Shown here: in pieces, positions 10,274 to 62,260 of the stretch
Layout: every line of letters starts with the position of its first letter
Numbering within the stretch: position 1 is the first letter of the stretch
Origin: an uncultured bacterium
GTDB taxonomy: Bacteria > Oederibacteriota > PGYV01 > CAWJRG01
Length of the DNA stretch: 64,000 nt
Assembly (NCBI GenBank): GCA_963845185.1
Contig: CAWJRG010000001.1
Location: forward strand, 32,001 to 96,000
Direction: 5' to 3'
The notes under the pieces: model-generated
Told to the model about the DNA's origin: nothing
What the model saw: the letters and a program-made list of their open reading frames with translations, nothing else
The model's database searches: none
Made by a program: the position numbers and the translations under genes

Positions 10274-13200
10274 TTACGGCACAGGAGTCTTTACCAATTT
10301 AGGCGTCCAGGTAAATGCCGCTGTATTTCCGCTCGGGTATATATTTACCGCGTCGCCCGGATATATGTCAAAATTCGTCCCGCCCCATGCGCTCATGCTC
10401 GGCCTGTAACCGTAAACTATAAAAGCCTGGTATATAGGATCCCACTTCAAAACCATGTCTATCTTGGTATTTGTTCCTGCTCCTGTTCCTCCTTCTATAT
10501 CAGCAACAATATCCGAGGCTTTTTTGTAAATACTGGTATATGGCAGGCTTCTTTTATTCGAATTTGGCAACGTACTATTGTAACTGAATATCAGGCCTAT
10601 GCTGTTATCCGTGCCTGCAGCTATCCAGTCAAAAGCTGATATGGCATACATATATATTGCGTTGGATGATGAAGTTCCCGCGTCAACAGCCCAGTTGGTA
10701 CCTATCCATTTTCCGAAACCCGCGCTGTATCCGTAAGAGATTGAAGCCTGGTAATGAGGATCCCATAAATGAAATTGGTTTATTTTGGTTGATGTTGTAA
10801 GGTTGCCTTCTATTTCCGTGACAAAATCAGAGGCATGTGTGTATTTGCTTTGGTAAGGAATTGCAAGCCTGTATATATTTGTTTTCCCGCTATTATAATT
10901 AAAATACATTATCACCTTTGACCCCATGGTCGATGGGGTTCCCTCGCTTGTACCGTTTACGCCTGTTACGAGATAAAAAGTATACTGGCTTCCGGACGTG
11001 TCGGTATATGTATACGATGACGATACTCCCGGTGTTGGCAACACGGTCGCTGTCACCTGCCACCCTGCCGGGAACGGGTTGAATTTACCGTAAGCGCCGG
11101 TTGCTACATAAATATTGAAGTAATCCGTCATTGCCGTGTTTCCCCACTGTAAAGTCGTGCTCGCGCCGTTTTGCGTGACCGACAACCCGTTGGGCGGCAT
11201 TGGCGTGCCAAGCGGAGTATTTGTAAATGTCGGAGTCACGGTCTGCGTGTTTGTGAGAGTCCATGTCGGCGTTGCCGTGGATGTGGACGTTATCGTAACA
11301 GTAGGTGTCCATGTGGACGTCGATGTAAATGTCGGCGTCGGTGCTATTACATTTACATTTGGGCTTTGCATTATGGGATATGGCGTGCCACCAAGCGGCG
11401 CAGATTGCACCAGGAACTGCGCTGTTCCGGTTCCCGGCTGAGAAGTCGCCCCCGGCCCTCCTCCAGACGTGTCTCCGTAAGTAATTGTTATTTTGCCCGT
11501 ATTGGCCGTAAGGCCCGCAACCCAAAGTGTTATTACCTGTCCGCTTGCCATTGTGAGTATGGAAGTTCCTCCTGTAACACTAACAGAAAAATATCCAGGA
11601 TCATTTATCGGCACTGCGCTGTATTTTGGCTGGCTCCATCCGTTTGGTATTGTCAGGCTTAACACTCCGTAAGGAGAAGACGTCCATGTTATTGACCCAG
11701 CAGTATAAATTATTTTCATTGTATTGCCCGGTACTCCCGCCGCTACCTGTATCGGCGATATGCTTGCCGTGCCATCACCTATTATCGGTGTGTTTGTAAC
11801 TGTTATTGTCGGCGTAGGTGCTATTACATTTACCTGCGGGCTGCTGCCTATTGGCTGGATGTTTGAACCATTTATGCTTGTTGAAATAAGGAATGTCTGC
11901 AAACCTGCGTTTGAGGACGCCGTCGCGTTAGAATATGTAACAGTTATAGTGCCTGTTGTACCTGGCAAACTGGATACATCAATAAATATAGTCTGACTTA
12001 AAGCTCCCTGCCCTATAACCGCAGTTGATGATGTGCCCGAATAAGTTACGCTGAAATACCCGGGCTGGCCTGGATTTGAATCCTGTGGCTGCGTCCAGCC
12101 GGCCGGTATTGATATTTCCAGCGTGCCGAAGCCCGGCGAACCGGCCCATGTATCATTGCCTGCGTAGTACGTTATCACCATGGTATTCCCGGTGGAACCG
12201 CCTGTCACCTGTATCGGCGATATTGTGGCACTCCCTTCGCCCTGCGGCGTCGGCGTAACTGTAGGTGAATTCGTGGAAGTAGAAGTTATAGTATAAGTCG
12301 GCGTATAAGTTATTGTGGTTGTATTGGTCGGTGTCCATGTTGGCGTGCCTGTAAATGTTGCTGTATCTGTTAATGTATTTGTAGTTGTATATGTCGGTGT
12401 CCATGTCGGTGTAAAGGTTGGTGTTCCAGTGTTTGTATTGGTCGGTGTCCATGTTGGGGTATCTGTCGGCGTGCTTGTAGGTGTATATGTCGGCGTCCAT
12501 GTTGGGGTTGAGGTTGGTGTATTTGTAATTGTACTCGTAGGTGTCCATGTCGGTGTAACTGTAATAGTTGATGTCGGCGTTGCTGTCGGTGTAATTGTAT
12601 ATGTCGGTGATATTGTCGATGTTTGTGTCTGTGCCATCATATTCACCTGTGGCGAATTCCCTATAGGCACAGGATTTACACCTGTCGGGTCGCTTGATAC
12701 TGCAAATACTACCATGCCTACATCACTTGCTATACCTGCTGTCGCCCCAGGCCCTCCTCCTGACTTAGCCCCATATGTCACTGTTATTGTCCCTGGCGTC
12801 GCTCCTCCCGGAAGGTTCCTTACCTGTATATCTATATTCTGGCCGTCTGCCAATGTTTGATATAACGTCCCTCCTGATACGCTTACCGTAAAATATCCCG
12901 GGTCTGTCCCTGTAAGGCTCGGCGCGCTCCAGTCTGCTGGTATTGTTATAATCAATTCCCCGTAACCAGGCGAGCCTGACCATGTTGTCGCTCCTGCTGT
13001 GTATGTTATCACCATTGTATTTCCTGTCGAACCAGCTGTCACCTGCGTCGGCGTTATTACTGCATTTCCCTGTCCTATTGGTGTAGCTGTAACTGTTTCA
13101 GTCCATGTTGGGGTCCATGTTGGCGTCGGTGTGGATGTAGATGTCGCTGTAGCTGCTATCATATTCACCTGCGGCGAATTCGCTATAGGCACAGGATTTA

Positions 13201-16200
13201 TACCTGTCGGGTCGCTTGATACTGTAAATACTACCATGCCTACATCACTTGCTATGCCTGCTGTCGCCCCAGGCCCTCCTCCTGACTTAGCCCCATATGT
13301 CACTGTTATTGTCCCTGGCGTCGCTCCTCCCGGAAGGTTCCTTACCTTTACCACTATATTCTGGCCATTAGCCACTGTTGAATATAACGTCCCTCCTGAT
13401 ACACTTACCGTGAAATATCCCGGGTCTGTCCCTGTAAAGCTCGGCGCGCTCCAGTCTGCTGGTATTGTTATAATCAATTCCCCGTAACCAGGCGAGCCTG
13501 ACCATGTTGTCGCTCCTGCTGTGTATGTTATCACCATTGTATTCCCTGTCGAACCAGATGTCACCTGCGTAGGTGTTATTATTGCATTTCCTTCGCCAAA
13601 AGGCGTATTTGTTACTGTCGGTGTCACTGTATATGTTGGCGTCCATGTTGGTGTCGAGGTTGATGTTGGACTCCACGTAGGTGTATCTGTAGGAGTATTT
13701 GTTGGTGTCCATGTCGGTGTGAATGTCGACGAAATTGTACCTGTCTGTGTATCTGTCGGCGTATTTGTTGGCGTCGTTGTTGGGCTGTCTGTTGGTGTAC
13801 TTGTTGGTGTACTTGTCGGCGTATCTGTCGGTGTACCTGTCGGTGTACCTGTCGGCGTCCATGTCGGTGTCCATGTCGGCGATTCTGTTGGTGTACCTGT
13901 TGGAGAATCCGTTGATGTATCTGTCGGTGTATTTGTTGGTGTCCATGTCGGTGTATTTGTTGGTGTCCATGTCGGTGTATTTGTAGCCGTTGTTGTCGGT
14001 GTCCATGTTGGTGTCGAGGTTGGAGTATTAGTTGGTGTCCATGTAGGCGTATATGTAGCCGTTGTTGTTGGGGTCCACGTCAGTGTCCATGTCGGTGTTA
14101 TCGTCGAAGTCTGTGTCTGTGCCATCATATTCACCTGTGGCGAATTCCCTATTGGCACAGGATTTACACCTGTCGGGTCGCTTGATACTGCAAATACTAC
14201 CATGCCTACATCACTTGCTATGCCTGCTGTCGCCCCAGGCCCTCCTCCTGACTTAGCCCCATATGTCACTGTTATTGTCCCTGGCGTCGCTCCTCCCGGA
14301 AGGTTCCTTACCTGTATATCTATATTTTGGCCGTCTGCCAATGTTTGATATAACGTCCCTCCTGATATGCTTACCGTAAAATATCCAGAGTCTGTCCCTG
14401 TAAGGCTCGGCGCACTCCAGTCTGCTGGTATTGTTATAATCAATTCCCCGTAACCAGGCGAGCCTGACCATGTTGTCGCTCCTGCTGTGTATGTTATCAC
14501 CATTGTATTCCCTGTCGAACCAGCTGTCACCTGCGTCGGCGTTATTACTGCATTTCCCTGTCCTGCAGGCGTAGCTGTCGCTGTTTCAGTCCATGTCGGG
14601 GTCCATGTCGACGTCGGTGTGGATGTAGATGTCGCTGTAGCTGCTATCATATTCACCTGTGGCGAATTCGCTATAGGCACAGGATTTATACCTGTCGGGT
14701 CGCTTGATACTGTAAATACTACCATGCCTACATCACTTGCTATACCTGCTGTCGCCCCAGGCCCTCCTCCTGACTTAGCCCCATATGTCACTGTTATTGT
14801 CCCTGGCGTCGCTCCTCCCGGAAGGTTCCTTACCTTTACCACTATATTCTGGCCATTAGCCACTGTTGAATATAACGTCCCTCCTGATACGCTTACCGTA
14901 AAATATCCAGGGTCTGTCCCTGTAAGGCTCGGCGCGCTCCAGTCTGCTGGTATTGTAATAATCAATTGCCCGTAACCAGGCGAACCTGACCATGTTGTTG
15001 CTCCTGCTGTGTATGTTATCACCATTGTATTCCCTGTCGAACCAGCTGTCACCTGCGTCGGTGTTATTATTGCATTTCCTTCGCCCAAAGGCGTATTTGT
15101 TACTGTCGGTGTCACTGTATATGTCGGCGTCCACGTCGGTGTGTTTGTTGTGGTCCATGTCGGTGTACTTGTTTGTGTCCACGTCGGTGTAAATGTTGGC
15201 GAAACTGTGTCTGTTGGTGAACTCGTCGGTGTATTTGTTGGAGTGCTGGTTGGAGTTCCAGTTGGAGTATTTGTAGGCGTCCATGTTGGTGTATTTGTTG
15301 GTGTCCCAGTTGGAGTATTTGTTGGTGTATTTGTTGGTGTCCCAGTTGGAGTATTTGTAGGTGTGCTAGTTGGTGTATCTGTTGGCGTTGATGTCGGAGT
15401 ATTTGTTAGCGTATATGTCGATGTATCCGTCGGTGAAGATGTTGGCGTATTTGTAAATGTATAAGTAGGAGTATAAGTTGGCGTATTTGTTGGTGTTGAT
15501 GTAGGTGTACTCGTTGGCGAATCCGTTGGTGTTGATGTAGGTGTCCATGTTGGCGTGCTTGTTGACGAATCCGTTAGCGTAGAGGTAGGTGAATCTGTAG
15601 GTGTCCATGTAGGTGTGTCTGTTGGCGAATCCGTTGGTGTAGATGTTGGTGTATTAGTTGGTGTTCCAGTTGGTGTATCTGTTGGCGTATAGGTTGGCGT
15701 CCATGTATATGTAGGTGTATCTGTTGGGGTCGATGTAGGTGTATCTGTTGGGGTATCAGTTGGTGTATCTGTTGGGGTATTCGTAGGTGTTTCCGTTGGT
15801 GTCCATGTCGGTGTGTTTGTTGGTGTATTAGTCGGCGTATTGGTCGGTGTATCTGTCGGTGTATTCGTAGGCGTATCTGTTGGGGTATCAGTAGGAGTAT
15901 CTGTCGGGGTATTTGTCGGCGTATCCGTTGGTGTTTCTGTAGGCGTATCCGTTGATGTCGATGTTGGTGTATCCGTTGGTGTCCAGGTATATGTTGATGT
16001 ATTCGTCAGCGTATCTGTTGGGGTATTCGTAGGTGTTCCCGTTGGTGTCCATGTCGGAGTGTCCGTCGGTGTATTAGTCGGCGTATTGGTCGGTGTATCT
16101 GTTGGGGTATCAGTAGGAGTATCTGTTGGCGTATTCGTAGGCGTATCCGTTGGTGTCCAGGTATATGTTGATGTATTCGTCGGCGTATCTGTCGGTGTGT

Positions 16201-19045
16201 CAGTAGGAGTATCTGTTGGGGTATTCGTAGGTGTTTCCGTTGGTGTCCATGTCGGAGTGTCCGTCGGTGTATTAGTTGGCGTATTGGTCGGTGTATCTGT
16301 CGGTGTGTCCGTTGGTGTTTCTGTAGACGTATCCGTTGGCGTCCAAGTCGGTGTATCTGTCGGTGTTGATGTAGGAGTATCTGTCGGGGTATTCGTAGGT
16401 GTTCCCGTTGGTGTCCATGTCGGAGTGTCCGTTGGTGTATTAGTCGGCGTATTGGTCGGTGTATCTGTTGGGGTATCAGTAGGAGTATCTGTCGGGGTAT
16501 TTGTCGGCGTATCCGTTGGTGTTTCTGTAGGCGTATCCGTTGGTGTCCAGGTTGGTGTATCCGTTGGTGTCCAGGTATATGTTGATGTATTCGTCAGCGT
16601 ATCTGTTGGTGTCCATGTTGGCGTGCTAGTTGGAGTATCCATCGGGGTATTTGTTGGTGTCCATGTTGGCGTGCTAGTTGGAGTATCCGTCGGGGTATTT
16701 GTTGGTGTATCTGTCGGTGTGTCAGTAGGAGTATCTGTTGGCGTATTCGTAGGCGTATCCGTTGGTGTCCAGGTTGGTGTATCCGTTGGTGTCCAGGTAT
16801 ATGTTGATGTATTCGTCGGCGTATCTGTCGGTGTGTCAGTAGGAGTATCTGTTGGGGTATTCGTAGGTGTTTCCGTTGGTGTCCATGTCGGAGTGTCCGT
16901 CGGTGTATTAGTTGGCGTATTGGTCGGTGTATCTGTCGGTGTGTCCGTTGGTGTTTCTGTAGGCGTATCCGTTGGTGTATCCGTTGGCGTCCAAGTCGGT
17001 GTATCTGTCGGTGTTGATGTAGGAGTATCTGTCGGGGTATTCGTAGGTGTTCCCGTTGGTGTCCATGTCGGAGTGTCCGTTGGTGTATTAGTCGGCGTAT
17101 TGGTCGGTGTATCTGTTGGTGTATCAGTAGGAGTATCTGTCGGCGTATTCGTAGGCGTATCCGTTGGTGTCCAGGTTGGTGTATCCGTTGGTGTCCAGGT
17201 ATATGTTGATGTATTCGTCGGCGTATCTGTCGGTGTGTCAGTAGGAGTATCTGTTGGGGTATTCGTAGGTGTTTCCGTTGGTGTCCATGTCGGAGTGTCC
17301 GTCGGTGTATTAGTCGGTGTATTAGTCGGCGTATTGGTCGGTGTATCTGTTGGGGTATCAGTAGGAGTATCTGTCGGCGTATTCGTAGGCGTATCCGTTG
17401 GTGTCCAGGTTGGTGTATCCGTTGGTGTCCAGGTATATGTTGATGTATTCGTCGGCGTATCTGTCGGTGTGTCAGTAGGAGTATCTGTTGGGGTATTCGT
17501 AGGTGTTTCCGTTGGTGTCCATGTCGGAGTGTCCGTCGGTGTATTAGTTGGCGTATTGGTCGGTGTATCTGTCGGTGTGTCCGTTGGTGTTTCTGTAGGC
17601 GTATCCGTTGGCGTCCAAGTCGGTGTATCTGTCGGTGTTGATGTAGATGTATCTGTCGGGGTATCAGTAGGAGTATCTGTTGGCGTATTCGTAGGCGTGT
17701 CCGTTGGTGTCCAGGTATATGTTGATGTATTCGTCGGCGTATCTGTCGGTGTGTCCGTTGGTGTCCATGTTGGCGTGTCTGTCGGTGTGTCAGTCAGTGT
17801 CCCTGTCGGAGTGTCCGTCGGTGTGTCTGTAGGCGTATCCGTCGGCGTACTCGTCGGTGTGTCCGTTGGTGTCCATGTTGGCGTGTCTGTCGGTGTGTCA
17901 GTCAGTGTCCCTGTCGGAGTGTCCGTTGGTGAATCTGTCGCCGTGTCTGTTGGCGTATCCGTCGGTGTGTCAGTCGATGTCCATGTAGGTGTATTTGTCG
18001 GCGTCCAAGTCGGCGATGGCGCTATTACCGTAACCTGTGGCTGATTACTTATAGGTGCAGTAGTATCTCCTGATGTTGTGCTCTCTACTGTAAAAGTTAT
18101 TGTACCTTCACTGCTTTGCGCTTGTGCCGCCCCCGATGGTGAATCTGATTGATCCCCATAATTTACTATTATTTGCCCGGTTGCAGGAAGGGAATAAACC
18201 TGAATAATTATATCCTGTGAGCTTATATTGATACTTTTAAGAGTTCCGGAAAGTATATTAACTGTCACATATCCTGCCGCACTTGAATCACCTGCTTGTG
18301 GCGTTGTCCAGTTTGTTGGAATTGATATTTTTAAGGTTCCATATGAAGGAGAATCATCCCATGCTGTATTTCCATTAGTGTATGTTATTACCATTGTATT
18401 ATTGCTTCCGGCGATAACTACAGTCGGGCTTATTATCGCTGAGCCTGGGCCTATCAATGGTGTGTTTGTTGGTGTGAATGTTGGCGTAAAAGTCGGTGTT
18501 GGATCGTTTACACTTATGCTTGGTGGAACCAATATTGGTAATGGATTACTGCCATCAGGGGCGGTGTAAATATTGAATACAGCAGTTCCCGTACTGTTTT
18601 GAGCAGTAGCGCCCGAGCCACCTCTTGATGTATCCCCATAAGTGACAGTTATTGTATCTCCACTTGTCAAAGTACTATCATTAATACTTACAGTTATATT
18701 CTGCCCTGCTACTGCAATGCTTGGGCTTCCATGTCCACTTGTTGAAGTTACAGTAACAAAACCAGGGTCACTGTCTGCTAAACTCGGCGCACTCCAACCC
18801 CCAGATGGTACTGCTATTTCCAAAATGCCGCCACTTACCCAACTATTTGAAACTACATTATATGTAATTGTTACTGTATTTCCTATGCTTGAAGTTAAAA
18901 TATTGGTTGGAGAAATTGAGGCATTACCTTCGCCTGAGGCGGCAATAATAAATATGGCTGCTACTAAAATTGCAACCGCTAAGAATAATATTATCTTCCA
19001 ATCAGCTCTTAATCTTTTTTTTACAAAAAGATTTTTAGCTATCAT
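10274..19045 (-). CDS. Giant secreted Thr/Pro-rich protein (2923 aa) with eight ~140-aa beta-sandwich-like modules
   Basis: N-terminal hydrophobic segment; ~1000-aa [12 protein letters not shown] stalk; repeated G[E/Q/D/P]Gx(A)xIxP...ITY...IPxxWSxP...PGYFxVxV modules; FN3-like segment and a twin repeat at the C-terminus. Confidence 0.9.
12640..15110. repeat. Near-identical tandem duplication of a module pair (1488-bp period)
   Basis: Matching text recurs at 12999/14487 and at 13521/15009. Confidence 0.9.
15130..18020. repeat. 12-bp-period coding minisatellite (TPTx) with higher-order blocks
   Basis: Recurrent gtatctgtcggt/gtatccgttggt units. Confidence 0.9.
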
Positions 19046-20088: not shown

Positions 20089-20091
20089 TTT

Positions 20092-23027: not shown

Positions 23028-23195
23028 AGCCTTTTCTTCTTCTCGCGGGCTTTCAGATTTTATTAACTGCTCAGTTATCAACCTTCCTTTCATTGGCTCT
23101 TTCATGGTACCCACCTCCCCGCTTTTCGGGGAACCCGGCTCCAAGCTTTCGGGTACTTCGAAAGGCTCAGCGTCTTTGCTTTTCTTTCTCTTTCC
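23026..23195 (-). ncRNA. Candidate structured 5' leader or sRNA
   Basis: GC-rich nested stems between a consensus promoter and a terminator-like hairpin. Confidence 0.45.
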
Positions 23196-23201
23196 GCTAT
23201 A

Positions 23202-23230
23202 AATATACCATATAATTCTGTTTTTGTCAA
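23202..23230 (-). promoter_or_regulatory. Sigma70-type promoter
   Basis: Minus strand TTGACA-N17-TATATT, with TG upstream of the -10. Confidence 0.7.
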
Positions 23231-23315
23231 GTATTTTTGTAAATATTATTAAATCTAACAATATAGTAATAAAATAAATTTATTAAATTCCCCTATTTAA
23301 TTTATTGTAATTTTA

Positions 23316-40280: not shown

Positions 40281-40307
40281 AAAAAAGGCGGCTTTTGCCG
40301 CCTTTTT
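40281..40307. terminator. Intrinsic terminator after the 1723-aa gene
   Basis: aaaaaggcggc-tttt-gccgccttttt. Confidence 0.8.
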
Positions 40308-52807: not shown

Positions 52808-52844
52808 TTAGGTACTCCTTTCATTTCAGTTTTCTACACTTATT

Positions 52845-55187
52845 TTATTTCAATCCTTCTGCCTGTTCTATCTGATTGTATAAATTTTCAAGTCGTGGAT
52901 CATTACCAAATATTTGCATTGCTTCTCTTAAAGTATTCAATGCCTTGCCGGCTTGTCCCAATTTATAATATGTATAAGCGATATATGAGTAAATCGCAGC
53001 GTTCTTATCCCGTTCTTTTGCTTTTTGAAAATATTTTAGAGCTTCGTTAAAATTGTTTGTTTGAAAATTATATACACCTATATTTTTGTATATATCTACT
53101 GTTCTATAATAATTTTTATTCAAAAGGAATTCATAAATGTCCATAGCATTATCATATTCTCCTTTGGATAATAAACTTGTTGCCTGGTTAAACATGACCT
53201 CGTATTGAGTTGTTGCATCGCCATTTCTTATTGCGTTAATGTATGTTTGAAGTAATTCTTTTTTATCACTACCGTATTGTACTGCCTTTTCAAACATTTC
53301 TTCTGCCATAGGCAAAATTTTTTCATTGTAATAAATCATACCCAGTGCCGCGTATGCTTGCCAGTCGTCATTTTTCATCGCTATGGATTTTTTCAGGCAT
53401 TTCATTGATTCTCCTTCATAGCCCATTTCGTTATATCCCCAAGCTATATTAAAATACATGTGCTCTTCATCGCTTTTTTCTGCATATATAAGAGCTTTAT
53501 CATATAGTTTCTTCGCCTCAATGAAATTCTTTTCTTTTAAAAAATCCTTTGCCTGCATTGCCATCCTTTCGCCATACAATGACGCAATCAACTTATCATA
53601 ATAACTTTTCACATCATAAATATTCCTGTATGAATAAATTTTAAAAATATACGATGGCATGTGATCTTTTTCAACTGATACTTTATAAAGCAATCCTTTT
53701 GCTTTTAAAACGTAGTTTGAATTACTTCCCAAAATGTCGTTTGGATAACTGAAATAAAAATTGCCTTTAGATATAAAATTAATAATAATATTGCGTGTGT
53801 TATTCGTAAGCTCATGTTCTTTTAAATTAGAATATCCATATTTTTTTATAAAATCTTTTATTCCCCATTTAGTCTGTAAAGAATTAAAATTTACATAATT
53901 AAAATCGTTTCCACGATGTTCTATGTTCCGATAATATCCAAGTGGAATTTCATAAAAATCACTCGCAGGAATATATAAACTACCCGGATCAATTGTTTTA
54001 ATTTCATTACTTCCAAAATCATATGAAAGATAATTATATCTTTCATCATTTATTTTAAAATGCAAAAACAAGACATATAATAATATTACTATTAGAATTC
54101 CCAAAAAAATATTTTTGTGGATTTTTTTAATGAATACACCGGCTACAGTATATATTCCGTTTATTGAAAAACTCGCCAATAAATACAGAGAAGGCATTAA
54201 AAAAGTGCCTACTGACCATTCAAATTGCTCGGTCAAATGTACGGAAAAAGTTACTATAAACAGATTCAATGCTAATATGCTCAAATAAAGAAATGAAATT
54301 TCCTTTTTTACCCGTCGTAGTGAATAAAACCCAAAAATAGCAAATATCAAAAATAAGTATATATTTATAAAAAATAAATTCAGCATTTCTTTTATATGAT
54401 AATTCTTGACATGTATAGTCGGAAAACCGGCATGCCCATAATCACGCAAGAAAATCATCCGGAACAAATTCTCTAAATTATCAGGTTTAATCATAAGGAC
54501 AAAAATATTTTCAGTTCTAGATCTTATCAGAAGATAAAGGTATACGCTCAAACCTACAAATAAAAACAACAAACAAATAATGTAATTTTGTAAATTTAAT
54601 TTTTCCCTGTATTTATAAAAAAAATAACTAAGAAAAGGTAAAAAAATTATGACACTTGGCCAGTGATTTGTAAGCGAAAGTCCAAAAATATAGATTATAA
54701 AGTATAAATATTTAATATCGAAAGCATCTAACAAACGCAAACTTAGAAACATTAAAGCAGATAAGAATAAAAGGTTTAAAATATATATTCCGCCTTTTGC
54801 CTCAATTGCCTGGTTCCAGTACATATAGGAAGACGCAAGAAGAAAAACACCTAAAAAATTAATAATTTTGTTCTCATAATTAAAAATTTTAAAAATAATA
54901 CTTTTAGTAAGATAATAAAACAATAACAGCACTATTATAGCAAGAAATATGGCAAATAAATTCACCCTAAAAGCGGGAGAGCCAAGCGGCAAATACGAAA
55001 ATACTTTTCCCACAATTGTATAAAGCGGGTATCCGGGAGGATGGCTTATTCCGAGTGTATATGCGGATGTTATTGTTTCAGCCGAGTCGTCACTTTTAAA
55101 TGCCGGAAACGTTGTATAAAGATACAATTGATATATAGCAATTAAACATACTAATAATATTATAAAGTCTTTGTATTTTTTAAGCAC
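52845..55187 (-). CDS. DUF2723/TMEM260-like membrane glycosyltransferase with TPRs (second paralog)
   Basis: DDSAE...LGISHPPGYPLY, YWNQAIEA and NHW. Confidence 0.88.
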   Translation of the reverse strand: MLKKYKDFIILLVCLIAIYQLYLYTTFPAFKSDDSAETITSAYTLGISHPPGYPLYTIVGKVFSYLPLGSPAFRVNLFAIFLAIIVLLLFYYLTKSIIFKIFNYENKIINFLGVFLLASSYMYWNQAIEAKGGIYILNLLFLSALMFLSLRLLDAFDIKYLYFIIYIFGLSLTNHWPSVIIFLPFLSYFFYKYREKLNLQNYIICLLFLFVGLSVYLYLLIRSRTENIFVLMIKPDNLENLFRMIFLRDYGHAGFPTIHVKNYHIKEMLNLFFINIYLFLIFAIFGFYSLRRVKKEISFLYLSILALNLFIVTFSVHLTEQFEWSVGTFLMPSLYLLASFSINGIYTVAGVFIKKIHKNIFLGILIVILLYVLFLHFKINDERYNYLSYDFGSNEIKTIDPGSLYIPASDFYEIPLGYYRNIEHRGNDFNYVNFNSLQTKWGIKDFIKKYGYSNLKEHELTNNTRNIIINFISKGNFYFSYPNDILGSNSNYVLKAKGLLYKVSVEKDHMPSYIFKIYSYRNIYDVKSYYDKLIASLYGERMAMQAKDFLKEKNFIEAKKLYDKALIYAEKSDEEHMYFNIAWGYNEMGYEGESMKCLKKSIAMKNDDWQAYAALGMIYYNEKILPMAEEMFEKAVQYGSDKKELLQTYINAIRNGDATTQYEVMFNQATSLLSKGEYDNAMDIYEFLLNKNYYRTVDIYKNIGVYNFQTNNFNEALKYFQKAKERDKNAAIYSYIAYTYYKLGQAGKALNTLREAMQIFGNDPRLENLYNQIEQAEGLK

Positions 55188-55291: not shown

Positions 55292-55324
55292 TAGAAAGAG
55301 CGGATTTTTGAATCCGCTCTTTCT
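55292..55324 (-). terminator. Intrinsic terminator
   Basis: agaaagagcggatt/aatccgctctttct stem. Confidence 0.7.
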
Positions 55325-55446
55325 CGAAAAAACTAACATTATGTGTTATAAACTTATATTATTTAAAAACCTTATGATGTTTTTCTGTGTTTCATCTTTT
55401 ACTTACCATTTATATCTATCGTTATTATTATTTTGCTATTACTTCG

Positions 55447-55767
55447 TTACTGGTGTCTTTGCATAACTGGCGATACGACAGTTGCAACTTTTTTTAGCCT
55501 TTGGGCTTTTTTGGCTTTTAAAGAAGCTTCTAACATTTCTTTTGGTGATACTGCTGTATTTTCCATAGCTGCCGTTTTCATTGCTGGTGTCGTTGCCGCA
55601 ACAGGCGATGAAATAGCTACAACTGTTTTCGGCCTTTTCGCCTTTTTGGCTTTTAGCATGACTATTTTTTCCAATGCTGTTCCCGTTGTATTTCCCGGGG
55701 CTGTCGTTGCAGCGAAAATCGATACTGCAAACAGCAAAGCTGCCGCTGTTACGATTAACTTTCTCAT
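55447..55767 (-). CDS. Small basic secreted protein with a twofold internal repeat
   Basis: AGGAGG RBS; signal peptide ending IFA; LKAKKA...SPV occurs twice. Confidence 0.75.
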   Translation of the reverse strand: MRKLIVTAAALLFAVSIFAATTAPGNTTGTALEKIVMLKAKKAKRPKTVVAISSPVAATTPAMKTAAMENTAVSPKEMLEASLKAKKAQRLKKVATVVSPVMQRHQ

Positions 55768-55792
55768 GATATTACCTCCTGAATTTTATATG

Positions 55793-58700
55793 TCACTTTA
55801 TGACCGCTATTTTTTTCCTTACAACCTTTCCTTCCGCCTGAATCGTGAGTAAATATACGCCGTTTGCCACTTCAACGCCAGCGTCATTCCGCAAATTCCA
55901 TATAACATAGTTTACTCCTCTGTTAACCGAAGCTGCATTTAAACTCTTGCCCCATACCTTACGGCCGTTTATGTCATATATCCCGATATTGACGTCCGTA
56001 GGCGCGGATAATGAGAATCTTATAGTTGTCGGGCCATTGCACGGATTCGGGAAATTATACGTATTGTTTGCCGACATTGCCTCCGGCGTAGGCGTAGTTA
56101 CATTTTTTACTATACTATTAGCCTTTGCTGCCTTGATGACATTACCTGTCACCCCTGGACAGTTATATTCCATTACTGAAGCTCCTAAATAAGAAGTTGA
56201 AAAATCCTGAAATGCCACATAAGGCGTTCCGTTAGAAATATATAAGGATGGATAGTCGACCTGCTCTGACGTGAAATCCTGACTTCCTACGTAATACCAA
56301 CCAAATACACTATTTTCCGTTGTATATTCTTCTACTGAGAGTTTTTCTGCTCCAACTGCTGAATCATCCACATAAGCCACATATGGAGTTCCGTTAGAGA
56401 TATATAAAGATTCTCCGTATGCATTCCCTGGCGAGAACCCTTCATTTCCTACATAGTACCAACCAAGTACACTATTTTCCGTAGTGTATTCTTCTACTGT
56501 TGCTGGACCGTTGCTACCATCTTCATACGCCAGATACGGTATGACAGTTGTTCCGTTATTATAGACATACAAAGATTCAGAGTATGCCGCACTTGCCGAG
56601 AACGCAGCTTTTCCTACTGTGTACCAGCCAAGTACACTATTTTGTGTAGTATATTCCATCACTGTCGCGCCAGACGAATTCTGAACATCCTGATATGCTA
56701 CATACGGTATCCCGTTAGAAACATATAAAGATTCATAATATGCAGCACCTGCCGAGAATCCCTCGGTTCCTACGTAATTCCAGCCAAGTACACCATCTAC
56801 CGTAGTATAGTTCATCACGGTTGCTGCACCATTTTTATTACTATCCGAGAATGCCACATACGGTATAGGCGTTGCTGTGCTATCATCTATAAATAGGGAC
56901 ACATCCTGTGCTGACCAAATCGAGAACCCTTCATTTCCTACGTAGTACCAACCAAGTCCGTTTTTTCCCGTATAATATTCCATTACTGTTACCGCACCGT
57001 TTTTATTACTATCCGAAAACGCCACATATGGATTCCCCGAGCTATTATCTATAAATAGAGATGTATAGGATGCCGCACCTGGTGAGAATCCTTCGTTTCC
57101 TACGAAGTACCATCCCAGTGTATCACCTATCATAGTATATTCCATTACTGTTGCTGCCTGGCTTTTATTATAATCCGAAAATGCCACATAGGGCGTATCT
57201 CCATAAAAATATAAAGATTCATATGTTGCCTGCTGCACACCTCCAGAGAACCCCTGCGTACCCACATTCTGCCAGCTCATGGCGCATGTCGCCGTACTTG
57301 TCGGTGTTCCAGTATATGTCGGCGTTGCTGTCGGCGTCCATGTCGGTGTGAATGTGCGTGTAGATGTTGGCGGCAATGATTTGGTTGAAGTGACTGTATA
57401 TGTTACGCTTCTTGTTTTTGTCGGTGTATTTGTAGGCGTCCATGTCGGCGTATTTGTCCGTGTTGCTGTGCGTGTACCTGTCTTTGTTGCTGTAGGTGTA
57501 GCCGTATATGTCACGCTTCTTGTTTTTGTCGGCGTATTAGTCGGTGTATAAGTGTGTGATACTGTGGCTGTTCGCGTGCCTGTTTTTGTAATTGTCGGCG
57601 TGAATGTACGTGATACTGTAACTGTTCGCGTGCTAGTTCTTGTGTTTGTTGGTGTCCATGTAGGCGTGTTTGTACGTGTTGCTGTCTGAGTAAATGTGTA
57701 AGTGGCAGTTATGGTATATGTGAATGTCGGCGTCTGTGTGATGGTATTTGTCGCACTTGGGCATTTACCGAATTCCTGGATTCTGTCATTACCAGTATCT
57801 GCAACGTAGATGTCTCCGCTGCTGTTTGCTGCCATTCCCCACGAATCATTAAACTGCCCGTTATTGCTCCCGGGAGTACCCCATTGCGTTATAAAGCACC
57901 CTACATTGTTAAATTCTTCGATTCTATTATTGTTCCTGTCGTCAACATAAACGTTTCCGCTGCCGTCTACTGCCAATTCAAAAGGACCGTTAAACTGACC
58001 ATTGCCGCTTCCCATATTACCCCATTGCAGTATGTATGCGCCTGTATTGCTGAATTTTTCGATTCTGCTATTACCAGTATCTAAAACATAAATGTTTTCG
58101 TTGCTGTCTATTGCGATTCCTTCGGGACTATTAAACTGCCCGTTGCCGGTTCCATTACTGCCCCATTGTGTTACATATATGCCTGTACTGGTGAATCTTT
58201 GGATATTTTGAATCCCATTATCTGCAACAAAAACGTCTCCATTACTGCTTCCACCGCTATTGTCTACTGCCAGTTCCCAAGGATACACAAACTGCCCGTT
58301 GCCGCTTCCATAACTACCCCATTGTAGTATGTAATTACCTAAGCTGTCAAATTTTTGAATCCTAAAATTACCCTGGTCCGCAACATACACATTGCCACTG
58401 CTGTCTACTGCCACTCCAATAGGACTAGAAAACTGCCCAGTGCCATTACCTCCACTACCCCATTGCAGTATGAAATTACCTGAGCTATCAAACTTTTGGA
58501 TATTATTATTAGTATAATCTGAAACATATACGTTCCCGTTGTTATCAACAGCTATTCCAAAAGGATTATTAAACTGGCCGTTGCCGGTTCCGGGAGTGCC
58601 CCATGCTGTAATAAAACACGGAGTCGGTTCCGGTGATGCTATGCAAATAGTAGCCGTTGGTGTATATGTCGGCGTCGGTGTACTGGTATAGGTTGGGCTA

Positions 58701-61700
58701 GCGCATGTACCGAATTTTTCGACTCTGCTGTTATTCGTGTCCGCGACATAAACATCCCCGCTGCTGTCTGTCGCCACTCCAAAAGGCATATTAAACAGCG
58801 CACTGCTGCCCAATTGCATTATATAGCATCCCGCGCTGTTGAATTCCTGGATTCTGTTATTATCCGTATCCGCAACATAAACATCCCCGCTACTGTCTAC
58901 GGTTATTCCATAAGGATTCTCAAACATTCCTGCGCCATTTCCAGCATAACCCCATTGTTCCAGAAGTGTTGTTCCCGTACTGTTAAATTCTTCAATTCTG
59001 TCATTACCGTAGTCTATGACATAAACATCTCCGCTGCCGTTTACTGCAACTCCCGAAGGGCCATTTAACAGCCCATTCATGGTTCCGGAACCATTCCATT
59101 GCCTTATATATCCTCCCGAATTATTGAATTCTATGATTCTATTATTACCATAGTCCGCGACATACACTCCGTTGCTGTCTACTGCTATTCCAAAAGGAAA
59201 ATTAAAGTTCCCGTTGCCGCTTCCGGAACTGCCCCATTGCGCTAAAAGTGTCGTCCCCGAGCTGTTGAATTTTTCGATTCTGTTATTCAACATGTCTACA
59301 ACATAAACGTTCCCGCTGCTGTCTAAGGCTATTCCAGCAGGACCATCAAACTGCCCGTTGCCGCTCCCGGTACTACCCCATTGTGCCAAAAGGGTTCCTG
59401 ACGAGTCTAATTCATCAACTACGTCATTGCCAAAGTCTGCAAAATATACGTCCTCGCTGCTGTTTACTGCTATTCCCCATGGACTTTCAAACAGCCCATT
59501 ATCAATCCCTCCACTACCCCATGTTGAAAGTAAACACGGGGTCGGTTCCGGTGATGCTATACAAATAGTAGCCGTCGAAGTATATGTCGGCGTAATTGTC
59601 ATTGTGCTCGTTGGCTGTGTGCTTGTACATGTCGGTGTCTGTGTGAACGTGTATGTCCCTGTTGATGTAAATGTTACATCCAGAGTATTGGTCGGTGTGG
59701 TGCAGGCACATGTGTTTTTAAACTTGTATATCGTCATGCCAGGCCCCGCGACGAATATGCTTTGCGTTGAATTTTCAAGCGCCATGCACTCTGTGTAATT
59801 TCCGGTATTAACACTGCCGCCGTTGAACGTAGTGTCAGGGTAGCCATTCCCCAAAAAGGCCCAAAGTCCCCCGTTAGGGCCGCTAGGACATCCATATCCT
59901 TGTACTATTATTCTGTTGCAATAATCAAATCCCACTGTCCACGCCAAGGAAGGTCCATAAACAAAATTATTATCTACATAGAATCCATTTCCGTTAAAAC
60001 TCAAGTCCGGGTTTCCTGTGCTGCTGCTTAATCTCCCGACAAACATTGCCTCTTCTATGGCACTGCTTGTAATGCCCGTTATAACTATATTCCCAGAGCT
60101 GTCTATTTTTATATCATATCCTCCTACAGAACTAGGGTTTAGTCCACCCGATGCAGAAGACATTGTTCCCGGTATCGGGTAATAAATCCCCGCTCCGCCG
60201 AGACTGCCAAAAGTACCTACAGGAATACCAGATGAATTTAATTTCCATACAACTACTTCAGGGCCTGCACCTGCCGGATATTCGGCACCGGCAACATAAA
60301 CATTGTCCGAACTATCTAATGTAATGCCCCAACCAACAGAATTTGATGTTAATGTATCAATATAATAGCCTGTCTGGCTACCAGGGCTGCCCGAACCGAA
60401 ATTTTGGTCAAGAGTCCCATCTGGCAGATATCTTGCGACAAACATGGTTGAATTGCTATAATTTGAAATGCTAAACCCTGTAACATATATCCTATTGGAA
60501 GAATCTACCACAACTTTCCACGCAATACTTACACCGTTACCCGTAAATAATTGAACATAACCCGTGCCTGCAAAAGTTGTATCAAGGCTTCCATCCTGGT
60601 TATATCGCCACACCATAGCAGACCCTGTACCCCCCCCAAAGTATGGGTTGGCACATCCATATCCAGACGCAACAATTTTATCCTGATAATTCCCGCCAAC
60701 TAGCATCCTGCTTATTGCTACACCATATGCCCATGTAGTTGTATTAGGCAAGGTACTAAAAACCGTAAATCCCTGACCGCCATAATTAAGGTCCAAAGTC
60801 CCGTTGGGAGTATATCTCCATATTACCATGTAATTTAAAAAATTTATATCGTTATAACTTTCACCAACTGTTATAACATTATTACTTGAGTCAAGCGCGA
60901 TGCCATATGCAAAGTCATTTCCATATGGGGTGCCTGCTGAATAATTCTTGGTCACCTGGCCTGTGCCGCCAAAACTTTTGTCAGGGACTACACATGTTGA
61001 GCTGACAAGCGGCCCCATAGACATGGGTCCGGCACCACCTCCCGGAGCAGTACCCAAAATTGGAACCCCGCTTAAATATGCTGGTATTTGGGTATTATTG
61101 ACAAAATCCGTCGTATTAATATAGCTCCAGTCATTTGACTGGTTATAATCGCTCCAGTCGCTCTTATGGACGTTGACTTGCACCTCTATGTATTGTCCCG
61201 GCAAAAGAAAACCGGTTTGTATATCAAAACTGATTTCTATGAATGAATCCTGGGTGCCTTGTGTTTGCTTGACAATGTATGCTCTGGTGTGTCCCGAAAT
61301 ATCAGTTCCCTGCGGCATTATTTTTGATGATACCATCTGCAGGATTTCAGGCTGGCTTGACCCCTCATCTTTCCAGTAACGTATTTCGGTCATGCCAATC
61401 AGCATTGGCGCATAGTAGTAGTTATAAAGCCTGATTATGGGATTTATTACATTCGGCATTATTGCGGCTGGCCTGTAAGTTAAATTCAAAGCGGATGGCG
61501 GCGGGGTTGGTGTTGTTGTCGGAGTACTCGTCAATGTTGAAGTGGCTGTGGCTGTTACCAGAAATATCTGTACCGTTTCATTGCCGCTGTTGTCCCCGCA
61601 ATAACCGCCGTAAACATCATCCGTGGTAAAATATAAATAATTTTTTGTTGCCGTTATTACCACCGGATTATATGGCTGATAAAAACCGAGAATTTGCGCG

Positions 61701-62260
61701 TCGCTGCAGTTATAAAATACCGGGCCGTTATTATATGCGCCGTACCCTACTGTCGAATATGAACTGGTAAGGTTTGTGCCGTTTGTATCCGCTGCCTGCC
61801 TTATCCTCAGCCGTGTTCCATACAAATTATTGTCTGTGTTGTCGGTTCCGTACGATATGCACCCGCTCAACAGGTTCACTTCGTATAAATTTCCCGGTGT
61901 CACCTGCACCTGGACCGCCGCTGCTGCCTCTGTAACGGGATAAGGCTCTTGGGGACAATTTAAAAGGCCATTCACTGTTATAGTTTGGCCAGAACCTGAC
62001 TGCATGGAAGACATGCTGCTCCCTGTAGTCTGGGCCTGTGCGGCCGTATTTACGGTAAGACTGCTCGAACCGGATGATTGTATTATTTGGGGCGTCGGTC
62101 CTGGCGGTACAGGCGTAGGCTGGCCTGCATATAATATTGAATTTAAAATGAAAAATAACAAAATAACAAAATAAGAAATTTTTTTCGATTTATTTGATTG
62201 TTCCCTTGCCCTCGCATCCATAAAGCACCCCTTTTCATGTTTTTTATTTTTATAGTTCAT
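55793..62260 (-). CDS. Multi-propeller secreted protein (2155 aa): CBM3-like, delta-60-type repeats, two NHL propellers, Thr stalk, further repeat propeller, T9SS-type-A-like CTD
   Basis: HKSDWSDYNQSNDWSY (CBM3-like); RYxxDGTLDxxF repeats; GQFxxPxGIAVDSSGNVYVAD repeats; YNFPNP...GVYLL...KKIAVIK. Confidence 0.9.
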   Translation of the reverse strand: MNYKNKKHEKGCFMDARAREQSNKSKKISYFVILLFFILNSILYAGQPTPVPPGPTPQIIQSSGSSSLTVNTAAQAQTTGSSMSSMQSGSGQTITVNGLLNCPQEPYPVTEAAAAVQVQVTPGNLYEVNLLSGCISYGTDNTDNNLYGTRLRIRQAADTNGTNLTSSYSTVGYGAYNNGPVFYNCSDAQILGFYQPYNPVVITATKNYLYFTTDDVYGGYCGDNSGNETVQIFLVTATATSTLTSTPTTTPTPPPSALNLTYRPAAIMPNVINPIIRLYNYYYAPMLIGMTEIRYWKDEGSSQPEILQMVSSKIMPQGTDISGHTRAYIVKQTQGTQDSFIEISFDIQTGFLLPGQYIEVQVNVHKSDWSDYNQSNDWSYINTTDFVNNTQIPAYLSGVPILGTAPGGGAGPMSMGPLVSSTCVVPDKSFGGTGQVTKNYSAGTPYGNDFAYGIALDSSNNVITVGESYNDINFLNYMVIWRYTPNGTLDLNYGGQGFTVFSTLPNTTTWAYGVAISRMLVGGNYQDKIVASGYGCANPYFGGGTGSAMVWRYNQDGSLDTTFAGTGYVQLFTGNGVSIAWKVVVDSSNRIYVTGFSISNYSNSTMFVARYLPDGTLDQNFGSGSPGSQTGYYIDTLTSNSVGWGITLDSSDNVYVAGAEYPAGAGPEVVVWKLNSSGIPVGTFGSLGGAGIYYPIPGTMSSASGGLNPSSVGGYDIKIDSSGNIVITGITSSAIEEAMFVGRLSSSTGNPDLSFNGNGFYVDNNFVYGPSLAWTVGFDYCNRIIVQGYGCPSGPNGGLWAFLGNGYPDTTFNGGSVNTGNYTECMALENSTQSIFVAGPGMTIYKFKNTCACTTPTNTLDVTFTSTGTYTFTQTPTCTSTQPTSTMTITPTYTSTATICIASPEPTPCLLSTWGSGGIDNGLFESPWGIAVNSSEDVYFADFGNDVVDELDSSGTLLAQWGSTGSGNGQFDGPAGIALDSSGNVYVVDMLNNRIEKFNSSGTTLLAQWGSSGSGNGNFNFPFGIAVDSNGVYVADYGNNRIIEFNNSGGYIRQWNGSGTMNGLLNGPSGVAVNGSGDVYVIDYGNDRIEEFNSTGTTLLEQWGYAGNGAGMFENPYGITVDSSGDVYVADTDNNRIQEFNSAGCYIMQLGSSALFNMPFGVATDSSGDVYVADTNNSRVEKFGTCASPTYTSTPTPTYTPTATICIASPEPTPCFITAWGTPGTGNGQFNNPFGIAVDNNGNVYVSDYTNNNIQKFDSSGNFILQWGSGGNGTGQFSSPIGVAVDSSGNVYVADQGNFRIQKFDSLGNYILQWGSYGSGNGQFVYPWELAVDNSGGSSNGDVFVADNGIQNIQRFTSTGIYVTQWGSNGTGNGQFNSPEGIAIDSNENIYVLDTGNSRIEKFSNTGAYILQWGNMGSGNGQFNGPFELAVDGSGNVYVDDRNNNRIEEFNNVGCFITQWGTPGSNNGQFNDSWGMAANSSGDIYVADTGNDRIQEFGKCPSATNTITQTPTFTYTITATYTFTQTATRTNTPTWTPTNTRTSTRTVTVSRTFTPTITKTGTRTATVSHTYTPTNTPTKTRSVTYTATPTATKTGTRTATRTNTPTWTPTNTPTKTRSVTYTVTSTKSLPPTSTRTFTPTWTPTATPTYTGTPTSTATCAMSWQNVGTQGFSGGVQQATYESLYFYGDTPYVAFSDYNKSQAATVMEYTMIGDTLGWYFVGNEGFSPGAASYTSLFIDNSSGNPYVAFSDSNKNGAVTVMEYYTGKNGLGWYYVGNEGFSIWSAQDVSLFIDDSTATPIPYVAFSDSNKNGAATVMNYTTVDGVLGWNYVGTEGFSAGAAYYESLYVSNGIPYVAYQDVQNSSGATVMEYTTQNSVLGWYTVGKAAFSASAAYSESLYVYNNGTTVIPYLAYEDGSNGPATVEEYTTENSVLGWYYVGNEGFSPGNAYGESLYISNGTPYVAYVDDSAVGAEKLSVEEYTTENSVFGWYYVGSQDFTSEQVDYPSLYISNGTPYVAFQDFSTSYLGASVMEYNCPGVTGNVIKAAKANSIVKNVTTPTPEAMSANNTYNFPNPCNGPTTIRFSLSAPTDVNIGIYDINGRKVWGKSLNAASVNRGVNYVIWNLRNDAGVEVANGVYLLTIQAEGKVVRKKIAVIK

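Follow-up and report, generated by a model that had tools for sequence, protein, structure and literature searches.

The locus

The window (the whole 64,000-nucleotide stretch that was analysed) carries the following genes and features, all on the minus strand.

7926..9104, minus: GT2 glycosyltransferase, MftF-like in a profile search, below cut-off
10274..19045, minus: 2923-aa secreted giant; eight copies of a ~145-aa beta-rich domain, stalk, FN3-like domain, C-terminal tandem domain; without a type-A CTD
10277..10921, minus: ~215-aa tandem tail domain "X" at the C-terminus of the 2923-aa giant, ending FTWTPKLxxxPVP
20928..23261, minus: secreted protein, 166-aa stalk and type-A CTD (TIGR04183 40 bits, cut-off 23; PF18962 32.1, cut-off 27)
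23316..24536, minus: PorV/PorQ-family 14-stranded barrel with fused C-terminal Ig (FlgD-like) domain (NF033709 94.4 bits, cut-off 90)
26259..26969, minus: tail of a broken giant, Ig domains and terminal CTD, as a separate ORF (FlgD_ig match)
26881..31509, minus: 1542-aa giant, 896-aa stalk, frame lost near 27002
31582..37323, minus: 1913-aa giant with a 911-aa stalk and three Ig domains in tandem, of which the final one has the type-A CTD fold (model pLDDT 87.2)
37759..40197, minus: TMEM260-like GT-C with TPRs (PF11028 96 bits, cut-off 24.2)
40282..40307, minus: terminator-like hairpin with U-run (-17.4 kcal/mol), between the 1723-aa giant and the preceding entry
40327..45498, minus: 1723-aa giant, 1043-aa stalk, triple-Ig tail with CTD
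52845..55187, minus: second TMEM260-like GT-C with TPRs, DSxE kept (PF11028 90.7 bits, cut-off 24.2)
55293..55324, minus: 14-bp hairpin upstream of the second TMEM260-like gene
55447..55767, minus: 106-aa Ala/Lys-rich exported protein, between the 2155-aa giant and the second TMEM260-like gene
55793..62260, minus: 2155-aa giant with beta-propellers of the delta-60 and NHL kinds, stalks that are short (228 aa) and a type-A CTD (TIGR04183 33.6, PF18962 32.6, both above cut-off)

Six minus-strand ORFs combine signal-peptide-like N-termini with Thr-rich stalks, which bears out the count of secreted stalk proteins in an earlier note on this DNA. That note took five of them to end in a CTD: four do so as read, but the fifth (26881..31509) reaches its CTD only across a frameshift near 27002, where it has one extra A relative to its paralogue, its tail being the separate ORF 26259..26969 (94% identical to the tail of 31582..37323); the frame break, at a site that the sequencing reads do not reach, may be real or an assembly error. 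The true start of 20928..23261 is probably near codon 53-57. "Thr-rich giants" is apt as regards the stalks but not for the 2155-aa protein, which is only 11.6% Thr and mostly NHL and delta-60 propellers. The GT2 gene exists too, but outside the range that the note had assigned to its system, and nothing was found tying it to display.

In the 2923-aa giant the (T-X)n stalk takes up 1446 aa; Pfam and NCBIfam profile searches gave no match, and its ~145-aa domain and tail domain are without a family name. Domain X has 199 cluster representatives and lies no more than 10 aa from the C-terminus in 137 of 147 matched proteins; profile comparison with the CTD revealed no likeness. X is a candidate docking or sorting module.

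The genome and its lineage

The 3.5-Mb genome encodes 156 type-A-like CTD proteins and 165 Thr-rich stalk ORFs, with 119 ORFs having both (cargo amounts to about 210,000 aa of the proteome), 37 PorV-family barrel loci (29 above cut-off) and 53 GT-C genes, 25 TMEM260-like and 28 of other PMT_2 type. The bacterium appears, on this sequence census, to be coated with about 150 tagged surface proteins, many of them on long Thr stalks, by way of a motor-less type IX-like export. The nearest named loci, with synteny, are those of FCPU426/Goldbacteria: neighbouring genes are 56% identical, as against 46% for Firestonebacteria and 43% for Elusimicrobia (58% for same-order genomes), and the host appears to be a Goldbacteria/FCPU426-type diderm. 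Comparisons covered 81 genomes of the phylum (63 stalk-rich; 18 stalk-less and TMEM260-rich), 20 of the order and, for gene neighbourhoods, five same-order relatives; kin genomes are not independent, so the cross-genome p values are all overstated.

Barrels, sorting domains and the export route

A T9SS-related exit, as the earlier note proposed, is well supported by a SprA-like gene, PorV-fold barrels, the type-A CTD fold and a modelled barrel-CTD complex. The SprA-like gene is single and encodes 2145 aa (TIGR04189 E 3.6e-54; 183.7 bits against a cut-off of 200), and a CTD gene comes next; matches extend to 77 of the 81 phylum genomes, above cut-off in only seven. PorV-family genes are found in all 81, with at least 10 matches each. 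The window's own PorV/PorQ-like gene was correctly recognized: the model of its product (pLDDT 91.6) has the PorV fold, with 8GL6_F as best Foldseek match (E 5e-11). Its closest paralogue is the barrel of an ExbB-ExbD-ExbD-TonB operon. A CTD gene follows it downstream; in four relatives its orthologues stand behind a gene for 453-478 aa, with no adjoining giant, and the TrpB-like gene ahead of the window's barrel is of that same size. In the window, two proteins exceed the cut-offs of both type-A CTD profiles, while a third family is recognized by fold only: the last Ig domain of the 31582..37323 model matches the CTDs of PorU (Z 12.0, rmsd 2.4, 95 aligned) and PorZ (Z 11.8), the Ig-like sorting fold that the note had asked about.

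Directly behind a co-oriented cargo gene stand 24 of this genome's 37 barrels, as against 50 of 1760 background genes (p 2e-26); 12 barrels have no upstream cargo. The order recurs in relatives (18/27 in G050, 17/26 in G012), and for 12 of the 18 G050 pairs the best-matching CTD and the best-matching barrel in this genome adjoin, with cargo lengths that differ. Orthologous pairs are explicable by operon inheritance alone, and over 24 pairs barrel and CTD distances show no overall correlation (Mantel r 0.08, p 0.18). Modelled as a complex, a conserved barrel-CTD pair scores 0.91 against 0.05 for the best of three controls, a mark reached by 116 of 157 solved pairs and 2 of 215 mismatched ones, but a similar complex has already been solved, so that this pass may merely reproduce a known structure; repeat runs share at least 93% of contacts, partner pLDDT is at least 87, and in the model the Lys of the last CTD strand is in contact with the barrel. 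Of 154 CTDs, only 70 group with a founder at a 50% threshold and 117 at 42%. The CTDs of 20928..23261 and 55793..62260 are 55% and 56% identical, respectively, to one barrel-paired founder CTD (G000:C5:272588); the window's triple-Ig CTD family has no founder at the 50% threshold. The pairing that is conserved is cargo-then-barrel and not cargo-then-transferase.

The sequence shows cargo to be built of four parts: signal peptide of Sec type, head, (Thr-X)n stalk and type-A-like CTD. Very probably, a PorV-family barrel would catch the CTD and the cargo would cross the single SprA-like pore. In Bacteroidota a single PorV is in use. Here, dozens of barrels would be kept, each encoded just behind a founder cargo; later duplicates, such as the window giants, would reuse a founder-type tag, and the cargo would remain on its barrel. 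We think this rather likely, and propose the last step because a conserved PorU sortase was not found: the PorU model matched only CTD regions and one short piece, the C25 domain turned up in 2 of 20 genomes of the order (this genome has it twice, within large ORFs that resemble cargo), and a PorU sortase for A-LPS attachment is, by sequence, not conserved in the order.

What would power such an export? According to an excerpt of PMC10994853, release of cargo from SprA requires the motor in F. johnsoniae. Profile searches found GldM and GldN in 0 of 81 phylum genomes each (the models had no positive-control genome, and very diverged forms could escape); PorP (TIGR03519) had no match, and the GldK model had only partial ones, in regions of sulfatase-modifying type and far below cut-off. 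A PorV-TPR-ExbB-ExbD-ExbD-TonB operon is conserved: of 10 regions retrieved from relatives, 7 have its genes in the same order. Its ExbB-ExbD-ExbD-TonB motor, whose operon also codes for a PorV-Ig barrel and a TPR protein, might replace GldLM; this is a tentative lead. Alternatively, barrels and CTDs might provide anchoring independent of SprA and of any motor, through BAM-assisted or lipoprotein-like delivery, with the Ton operon an ancestral Agl-Glt-like core that has another job. The missing Gld and PorP matches favor this, as do a PorV fold common to FadL transporters and an operon TPR protein that matches YbgF better than SprE; the full-length SprA-like gene that most of the phylum keeps, followed here by a CTD gene, speaks against it, and we consider it quite improbable.

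Stalks, transferases and candidate glycosylation

The stalks far exceed chance: the genome has 2621 occurrences of the motif TxTxTPTxTxT and only 8 of its reversed control. Stalks are a (Thr-X)n alternation (P(Thr at +2)=0.72-0.96, P(Thr at +1)=0.01-0.10) with 5-8% Ser, 6-12% Y, F and W, and 8-20% Pro; long stretches stay in register (151 switches across 38,267 aa, none in 25 of 70 segments). A mucin-like PTS domain is a Ser/Thr/Pro-rich tract with clustered Ser and Thr. With adjacent TT rare and Ser scarce, the stalks are not PTS tracts, and the label "mucin-like" has to be given up; they may still function as a glycosylated spacer, and their glycosylation is plausible. We judge it reasonably probable that periplasmic GT-C enzymes O-glycosylate them from a lipid-linked sugar, the stalks being protease-resistant spacers. 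In C. bescii, secreted enzymes whose linkers alternate Thr and Pro are glycosylated by a GT39 (PMC6151902, excerpt). Four GT2s of 229-237 aa, resembling polyprenyl-phosphate sugar synthases but all below cut-off, are candidate synthases of a lipid-phosphate donor such as TMEM260-type O-mannosyl transfer would use.

The assignment of DUF2723 to the family of TMEM260 is confirmed by homology (37759..40197 against 9RQL: E 3e-22, residues 18-485) and by the catalytic Asp, D36 aligning to human D52. This protein belongs to a genome-specific expansion; the Asp (DSxE) is present in all 25 paralogues, and the order set has DSxE in 62 of 69 and DDGE in 7. No bacterial TMEM260 homologue with known activity was found in the literature searched.

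Is each transferase the private partner of the giant upstream of it? So the earlier note had it, from two DUF2723-TPR genes lying co-oriented just downstream of giants. The genes are real, but terminator-like hairpins split both pairs, and the 605 bp between the 2155-aa giant and 52845..55187 also contain the 106-aa gene. Within this genome the model has some backing: 6 of the 25 copies lie directly downstream of cargo, against 68 of 1772 (p 4e-4), and 8 of 16 extra copies lie within 1 kb of cargo, as do 33 of 185 other duplicated genes but none of the 9 core copies (p 0.006, with the core/extra split set after tree inspection); in its order, no other genome equals this one in number of copies or of stalk motifs. 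Co-localisation across genomes, which the note had named as its own test, failed: 1 of 46 copies in the five relatives is cargo-adjacent (in the clade of this genome's expansion) and, among public loci, 1 of 80. The distances among transferases do not mirror those among cargo (Mantel r 0.02 over 7 pairs), and in 18 of 63 stalk-rich genomes TMEM260-like matches number one weak hit or none; for these reasons cognate pairing is not supported. G071, G041 and G019 (98-99% complete, 156-992 stalk motifs) lack a match even to the lineage TMEM260 profile, and the lone copies of G012 and G036 are without the catalytic Asp. Cargo-adjacent copies do not, moreover, group together on the tree (6 changes, a number that 124 of 500 shuffles equal or undercut), terminator-like hairpins stand at 4 of 7 junctions against 5 of 25 cargo-barrel junctions, GC is 0.29-0.31 in the transferase genes and 0.44-0.46 in the giants, 17 of 25 copies lie beside housekeeping or envelope genes, and 25 enzymes face 165 stalk proteins. 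One dedicated enzyme per giant is thus very unlikely; the neighbouring enzymes look shared. A looser link survives, in the local enrichment here and in a within-order correlation of TMEM260 count with stalk load (rho 0.81; 0.72 per Mb; 0.68 when this genome is left out) that per-Mb controls do not share (PMT_2 0.16, PorV 0.11). Within the order, TMEM260-like enzymes acting as a common pool may well contribute, beside the 28 other PMT_2-type GT-Cs, although we put this at somewhat short of even.

Two further readings bear on the acceptors. The targets of human TMEM260 are IPT-domain sequons and not low-complexity stalks (PMC10214176; 10.64898/2026.09.21.753134; both in excerpt), and the enzymes here could likewise modify folded Ig/IPT-type strands or other envelope targets, leaving the stalks to PMT_2/GT39-type enzymes or unmodified. 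TIG/IPT domains occur in 17 of the 18 stalk-less TMEM260-rich genomes against 13 of the 63 stalk-rich ones; phylum-wide, PMT_2 count tracks stalks (rho 0.63; family medians 0.46; at most 39 candidates scored) and TMEM260 does not (rho 0.02); and core copies adjoin YfhO, Wzy_C-TPR, GT1 and lipid A genes. On the other side, this genome has its 25 copies despite a single weak TIG match and no strict human-type sequon (Px6Px3Px2GGx3T) in cargo or other proteins, and within the order it is TMEM260 rather than PMT_2 that tracks stalks; we give this reading a substantial minority share. The stalks might, instead, be unglycosylated structural elements, alternating Thr lining up every hydroxyl along a single face of an extended strand, which would self-associate or bind cellulose. 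The alternation of Thr with aromatic and aliphatic residues, the long register and the cellulose capture of Goldbacteria (PMC7031533, excerpt) are consistent with that; but Pro at these levels disrupts regular beta structure, alternating Thr-Pro linkers are present in glycosylated enzymes elsewhere (PMC6151902), and 53 GT-C genes in one genome require acceptors. This we regard as unlikely.

Significance

The T9SS has been described as an FCB system dependent on the GldLM motor and on one PorV for all type A tags. The explanation preferred here (T9SS-derived display, barrel-paired tags, glycosylated stalks and the Ton lead) is, as a whole, somewhat probable, and by it the window would be a hot spot where cargo genes have been duplicated, within a surface-display system that derives from the T9SS and spans the genome. 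One can go further, doubtful though we think it, to a non-FCB phylum whose T9SS is ancestral or an alternative form, with a single SprA-like pore, dozens of PorV-family carriers that read a CTD tag code, ExbB-ExbD-ExbD-TonB power, X-tailed tag-less giants docked on tagged partners, and the first bacterial TMEM260-type O-glycosylation of (Thr-X)n stalks into a glycocalyx. If true, a motor-less SprA-PorV-CTD set with many tag-paired carriers would show the minimal machine and a possible earlier power source. A conserved 160-230-aa stalk-and-CTD protein and its barrel make a small, expressible test pair, and the genome supplies 25 bacterial TMEM260 homologues with catalytic Asp together with many candidate acceptors.

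Comparison with known systems

The system shares with the type A route of the Bacteroidota T9SS (PMC10994853, excerpt; PDB 8GL6, 6H3I) a SprA-like pore gene, PorV-fold barrels, Sec signal peptides and a seven-stranded Ig CTD with Lys in its last strand. It differs in that GldM, GldN and PorP have no match here and PorU is not conserved, in having 37 PorV-family genes where the Bacteroidota have one general carrier, and in its host: a 2024 review, in the part consulted, assigns the T9SS to the FCB superphylum (PMC11205867), outside which this lineage lies. The carrier gene directly downstream of its cargo recalls type B CTDs with their cognate PorP/SprF shuttle (SprB-SprF; PMC12618676, excerpt; see also PMC9143113), and so do the possible sharing of a carrier by orphan cargos and the carrier's second role as surface anchor (PMC12618676); here, however, tags are type-A-like and barrels of the PorV/PorQ family, with no TIGR03519 match. 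Human TMEM260 (GT117, PF11028, PDB 9RQL) has the same GT-C module with TPRs, and its D52 is kept in 25 of 25 copies; unlike it, the enzymes here are bacterial and multi-copy, in a proteome from which the IPT sequon is absent. With the C. bescii GT39 system (PMC6151902, excerpt) the common features are secreted proteins whose linkers alternate Thr with X, a locus that includes a GT-C gene, and proteolysis protection; there, one GT39 serves all substrates of a monoderm, on short linkers, whereas here stalks extend to as much as 2600 aa, with TMEM260-like or PMT_2 proteins as the candidate enzymes.

A sample of a genome-wide system

The window, G000:C1:32001-96000 of the analysed genome (G000; 3.5 Mb, 99% complete), is a sample of a genome-wide system. 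The ORF calls of this genome yield 165 stalk ORFs and 156 proteins with the C-terminal sorting domain (CTD, or tag), 119 being both: ~211,000 of 1,080,000 aa. To these are added 37 PorV-family loci (40 rows minus three second fragments, which were merged), 25 TMEM260-like genes, 28 further PMT_2 genes and one SprA-like gene. Across 81 genomes of the phylum (this one included) SprA-like proteins are found in 77, PorV-family barrels in 81, TMEM260-like proteins in 75, and a stalk motif count of at least 30 in 63.

The host is a diderm with an LPS-containing outer membrane, since Lpt/Kds/LpxL genes occupy window positions 3-6033. Among named TMEM260-like loci, those nearest to the ones here carry FCPU426 or Goldbacteria labels or, for a few bins, a Spirochaetia label; several show synteny with a locus of the analysed genome. 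Mean identity of neighbouring genes is 56% for Goldbacteria/FCPU426 labels (one and the same group according to the available text of PMC7031533), falling to 46% with Firestonebacteria and 43% with Elusimicrobia.

The earlier note listed six secreted Thr-stalk proteins, five of them ending in a CTD. All six are minus-strand ORFs with signal-peptide-like starts and stalks in which Thr alternates with another residue and Ser is scarce, but only four, as read, end in a CTD: the 2923-aa giant closes with another domain, and the 1542-aa ORF, which near 27002 carries one A more than its paralogue, has its tail in a separate ORF. Reads from a small share of one DNA run gave no coverage of this site. 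Both DUF2723-TPR genes do match PF11028 and TPRs, and there is indeed one match to the PorV/PorQ family; the GT2 exists, but just outside the range assigned to it. (As a donor synthase it is unsupported: its best match is MftF-like.) Insertion elements split the giant array at 45817-51388: an intact and an interrupted copy of IS1182, and an IS3-like element. The array is flanked by tRNA-Asp and tRNA-Gly genes at 63190-63572. Frame breaks, likely assembly indels, divide some ten stalk genes, together with a barrel, a TPR and an ExbB gene, on several contigs of the genome.

Cargo and barrel are often neighbours

The strongest genomic signal is the placement of a barrel gene directly after a cargo gene (a secreted protein with tag, stalk or both): 24 of 37 barrels, against a background of 50/1760, mostly with gaps of <130 bp. 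Two relatives repeat it, with 18/27 barrels in G050 and 17/26 in G012 (27 of 39 and 26 of 44 rows scored; 20 regions per genome). Of the 18 G050 pairs, 12 find their best tag match and their best barrel match in genes that are likewise neighbours in the analysed genome. At C5:272588 lies a barrel-paired cargo, or founder, whose CTD shares 55-56% identity with two window CTDs; the triple-Ig giant family has no close founder.

A complex model of one conserved barrel-CTD pair scores 0.91, against 0.05 for the best control (the mark adopted is reached by 116/157 solved pairs and 2/215 mismatched ones), with contact agreement of at least 93% and partner pLDDT of at least 87. Because a like complex has already been solved, the model shows likeness only. 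It places the last-strand Lys of the CTD on the barrel, much as RemZ K1110 binds PorV (available text of PMC10994853). Does each barrel then read its own tag? Barrel and CTD distances over the 24 pairs are not significantly correlated (mirror tree), and 12 barrels have no upstream cargo; both observations speak against a strict code.

A minimal cargo, consisting of signal peptide, stalk and CTD, lies with its barrel at C9:973313-979485 (L019) and measures 158-226 aa in relatives (L025-L030, L108, L114, L126, L132, L139). This locus is convergent on a sigma-54 regulator and a TMEM260-like gene, the latter being the origin of a 14-copy expansion in the genome.

A probable type IX variant

The T9SS-related exit route proposed in the earlier note is supported by the SprA-like gene, barrels of PorV fold, a PorU/PorZ-like CTD fold and the cargo-barrel order. 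The window barrel is predicted to have 14 strands and an Ig domain, with PorV of 8GL6 as best structural match, followed by FadL; a PDB sequence search with it returned chance matches only. The Ig-like sorting fold is likewise borne out in prediction: the model of the 1913-aa giant's tail has three Ig domains, and the final one most resembles the CTDs of PorU and PorZ. The proposed check for SprA and PorKLMN gave a divided answer: SprA-like proteins are widespread, but GldM and GldN each gave 0/81 in searches that had no positive control genome. PorP, also searched with no positive control, gave no match, and the C25 domain (looked at as PorU sortase domain) was found in 2/20 genomes of the order. 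Being T9SS-like, yet departing from T9SS in motor, ring and sortase, the system is a T9SS variant.

Named genomes scanned with the SprA-like protein gave no match. A literature search outside subscription papers and supplements found no report of T9SS in this lineage, of T9SS together with SprA in Elusimicrobia, or of PorV with FCPU426; in the available part of one Goldbacteria paper, type IX occurs only within a reference title.

Transferases and their clients

The TMEM260-like proteins have kept the Asp aligned with human D52 (D36 in the window copy at 37759-40197) in 25/25 copies; D52 is required for activity of the human enzyme (PMC10214176, in its available text). The same literature search found no study of bacterial TMEM260/GT117 activity. 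One copy, at C5:466250-469905, is broken by an IS3-type element.

Pairing of each transferase with the giant beside it, as the earlier note had it, is rejected as unsupported: the linkage is not conserved, the distances among transferases show no agreement with those among cargo proteins, and hairpins (-17.4 and -21.6 kcal/mol) stand between giant and transferase at both window junctions. The genes are neighbours, but a 106-aa gene intervenes next to the 2155-aa giant. Within the genome 6/25 TMEM260-like genes directly follow cargo (p 4e-4), and cargo is no more than 1 kb away from 8; co-localisation across genomes fails, with 1/46 in five relatives (52 copies, 47 of them obtained, one fragment dropped) and 1 among the best 80 public loci of the matches listed, many on short contigs. 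In a tree of this genome and the five relatives, core orthogroups keep fixed envelope or housekeeping contexts and both window copies fall in a genome-specific expansion. Extra copies lie near cargo in 8/16 cases, other duplicated genes in 33/185 (a post hoc split).

Within the order, copy number follows stalk load (rho 0.81; 0.72 per Mb); in family f15 (0.01) and across the phylum (0.02) it does not. In 18 genomes stalks coexist with no more than one TMEM260-like match, while another 18 have two or more copies and no stalks. A lineage profile found no match in 3/5 stalk-rich genomes tested; stalks thus do not require this family. The lone TMEM260-like proteins of G036 and G012 (L191, L192), its hits in the other two, are probably inactive, since GGQAE replaces GDSxE and the catalytic Asp is gone.

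TIG/IPT domains, the client fold of human TMEM260 (available text of 10.64898/2026.09.21.753134), occur in 17/18 of the stalk-less, TMEM260-rich genomes (families f10, f11, f17, f19, f21) and are almost missing from the analysed genome, whose cargo has zero human IPT sequons. This distribution, with the decoupling of stalks from transferases, suggests that the clients of this family may differ from one lineage to another. Judged from coordinates, a ~510-600-aa PMT_2 gene is divergent to the SprA-like gene in families f13 and f16, for instance at G041:C1:67784-72007.

The tail of the CTD-less giant

The ~215-aa tandem domain (X tail) that ends the 2923-aa giant is C-terminal in 137/147 homologues.

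Window 10277-10921, minus strand: X tail of the 2923-aa giant, with no adjoining partner
G000:C9:454680-497798: X-tail giants of the analysed genome
L193-L202: X-tail giants at further loci

As a remote CTD it fails (HHalign probability 0.4%). Its profile matched only FN3 domains in the PDB, through the flanking region; in Atlas searches, the X region and the head repeat led to clusters that are either unnamed or FN3, and one match to BslB at 0.85 is a lead only. A stalk-and-CTD gene directly follows the X-tail giant in 2/3 cases here and in 5/10 relative regions, and these partners have one N-terminal domain in common. The C-terminal position and the tagged gene usually next to it suggest that X-tail giants might dock onto tagged partners.

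Proposed mechanism and known systems

Parts, folds and gene order are shown, and the following mechanism is proposed from them. Cargo would most likely cross the inner membrane via Sec; its tag would then, most likely, be caught by a PorV-family barrel within the SprA-like pore, and the cargo most likely be retained on that barrel, the stalk keeping the head clear of LPS. Stalks would probably be glycosylated by a shared GT-C pool, by analogy with the glycosylated Thr-Pro linker enzymes of C. bescii (available text of PMC6151902). A putative glycocalyx is plausible.

Release from SprA requires energy in F. johnsoniae (PMC10994853, same portion), and another motor was therefore sought. One candidate is a conserved operon encoding a large CTD cargo, a barrel-Ig protein, a ~1030-aa TPR protein, ExbB/TolQ, two ExbD and TonB_C.

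G000:C9:131000-145500 (L213): Ton-type operon, several genes in pieces
L203-L209, L212: further loci of this operon

The barrel-to-ExbD order recurs in 7/10 relative regions (of the rest, a contig end truncates one, and two are other ExbBD loci), and the barrel of this operon is the closest paralogue (25-30%) of the window barrel. Its involvement in export is put forward as a lead only. Among described systems, type B cargo with its SprF-like shuttles (available text of PMC12618676) has a similar layout, whereas the tags here are type-A-like.
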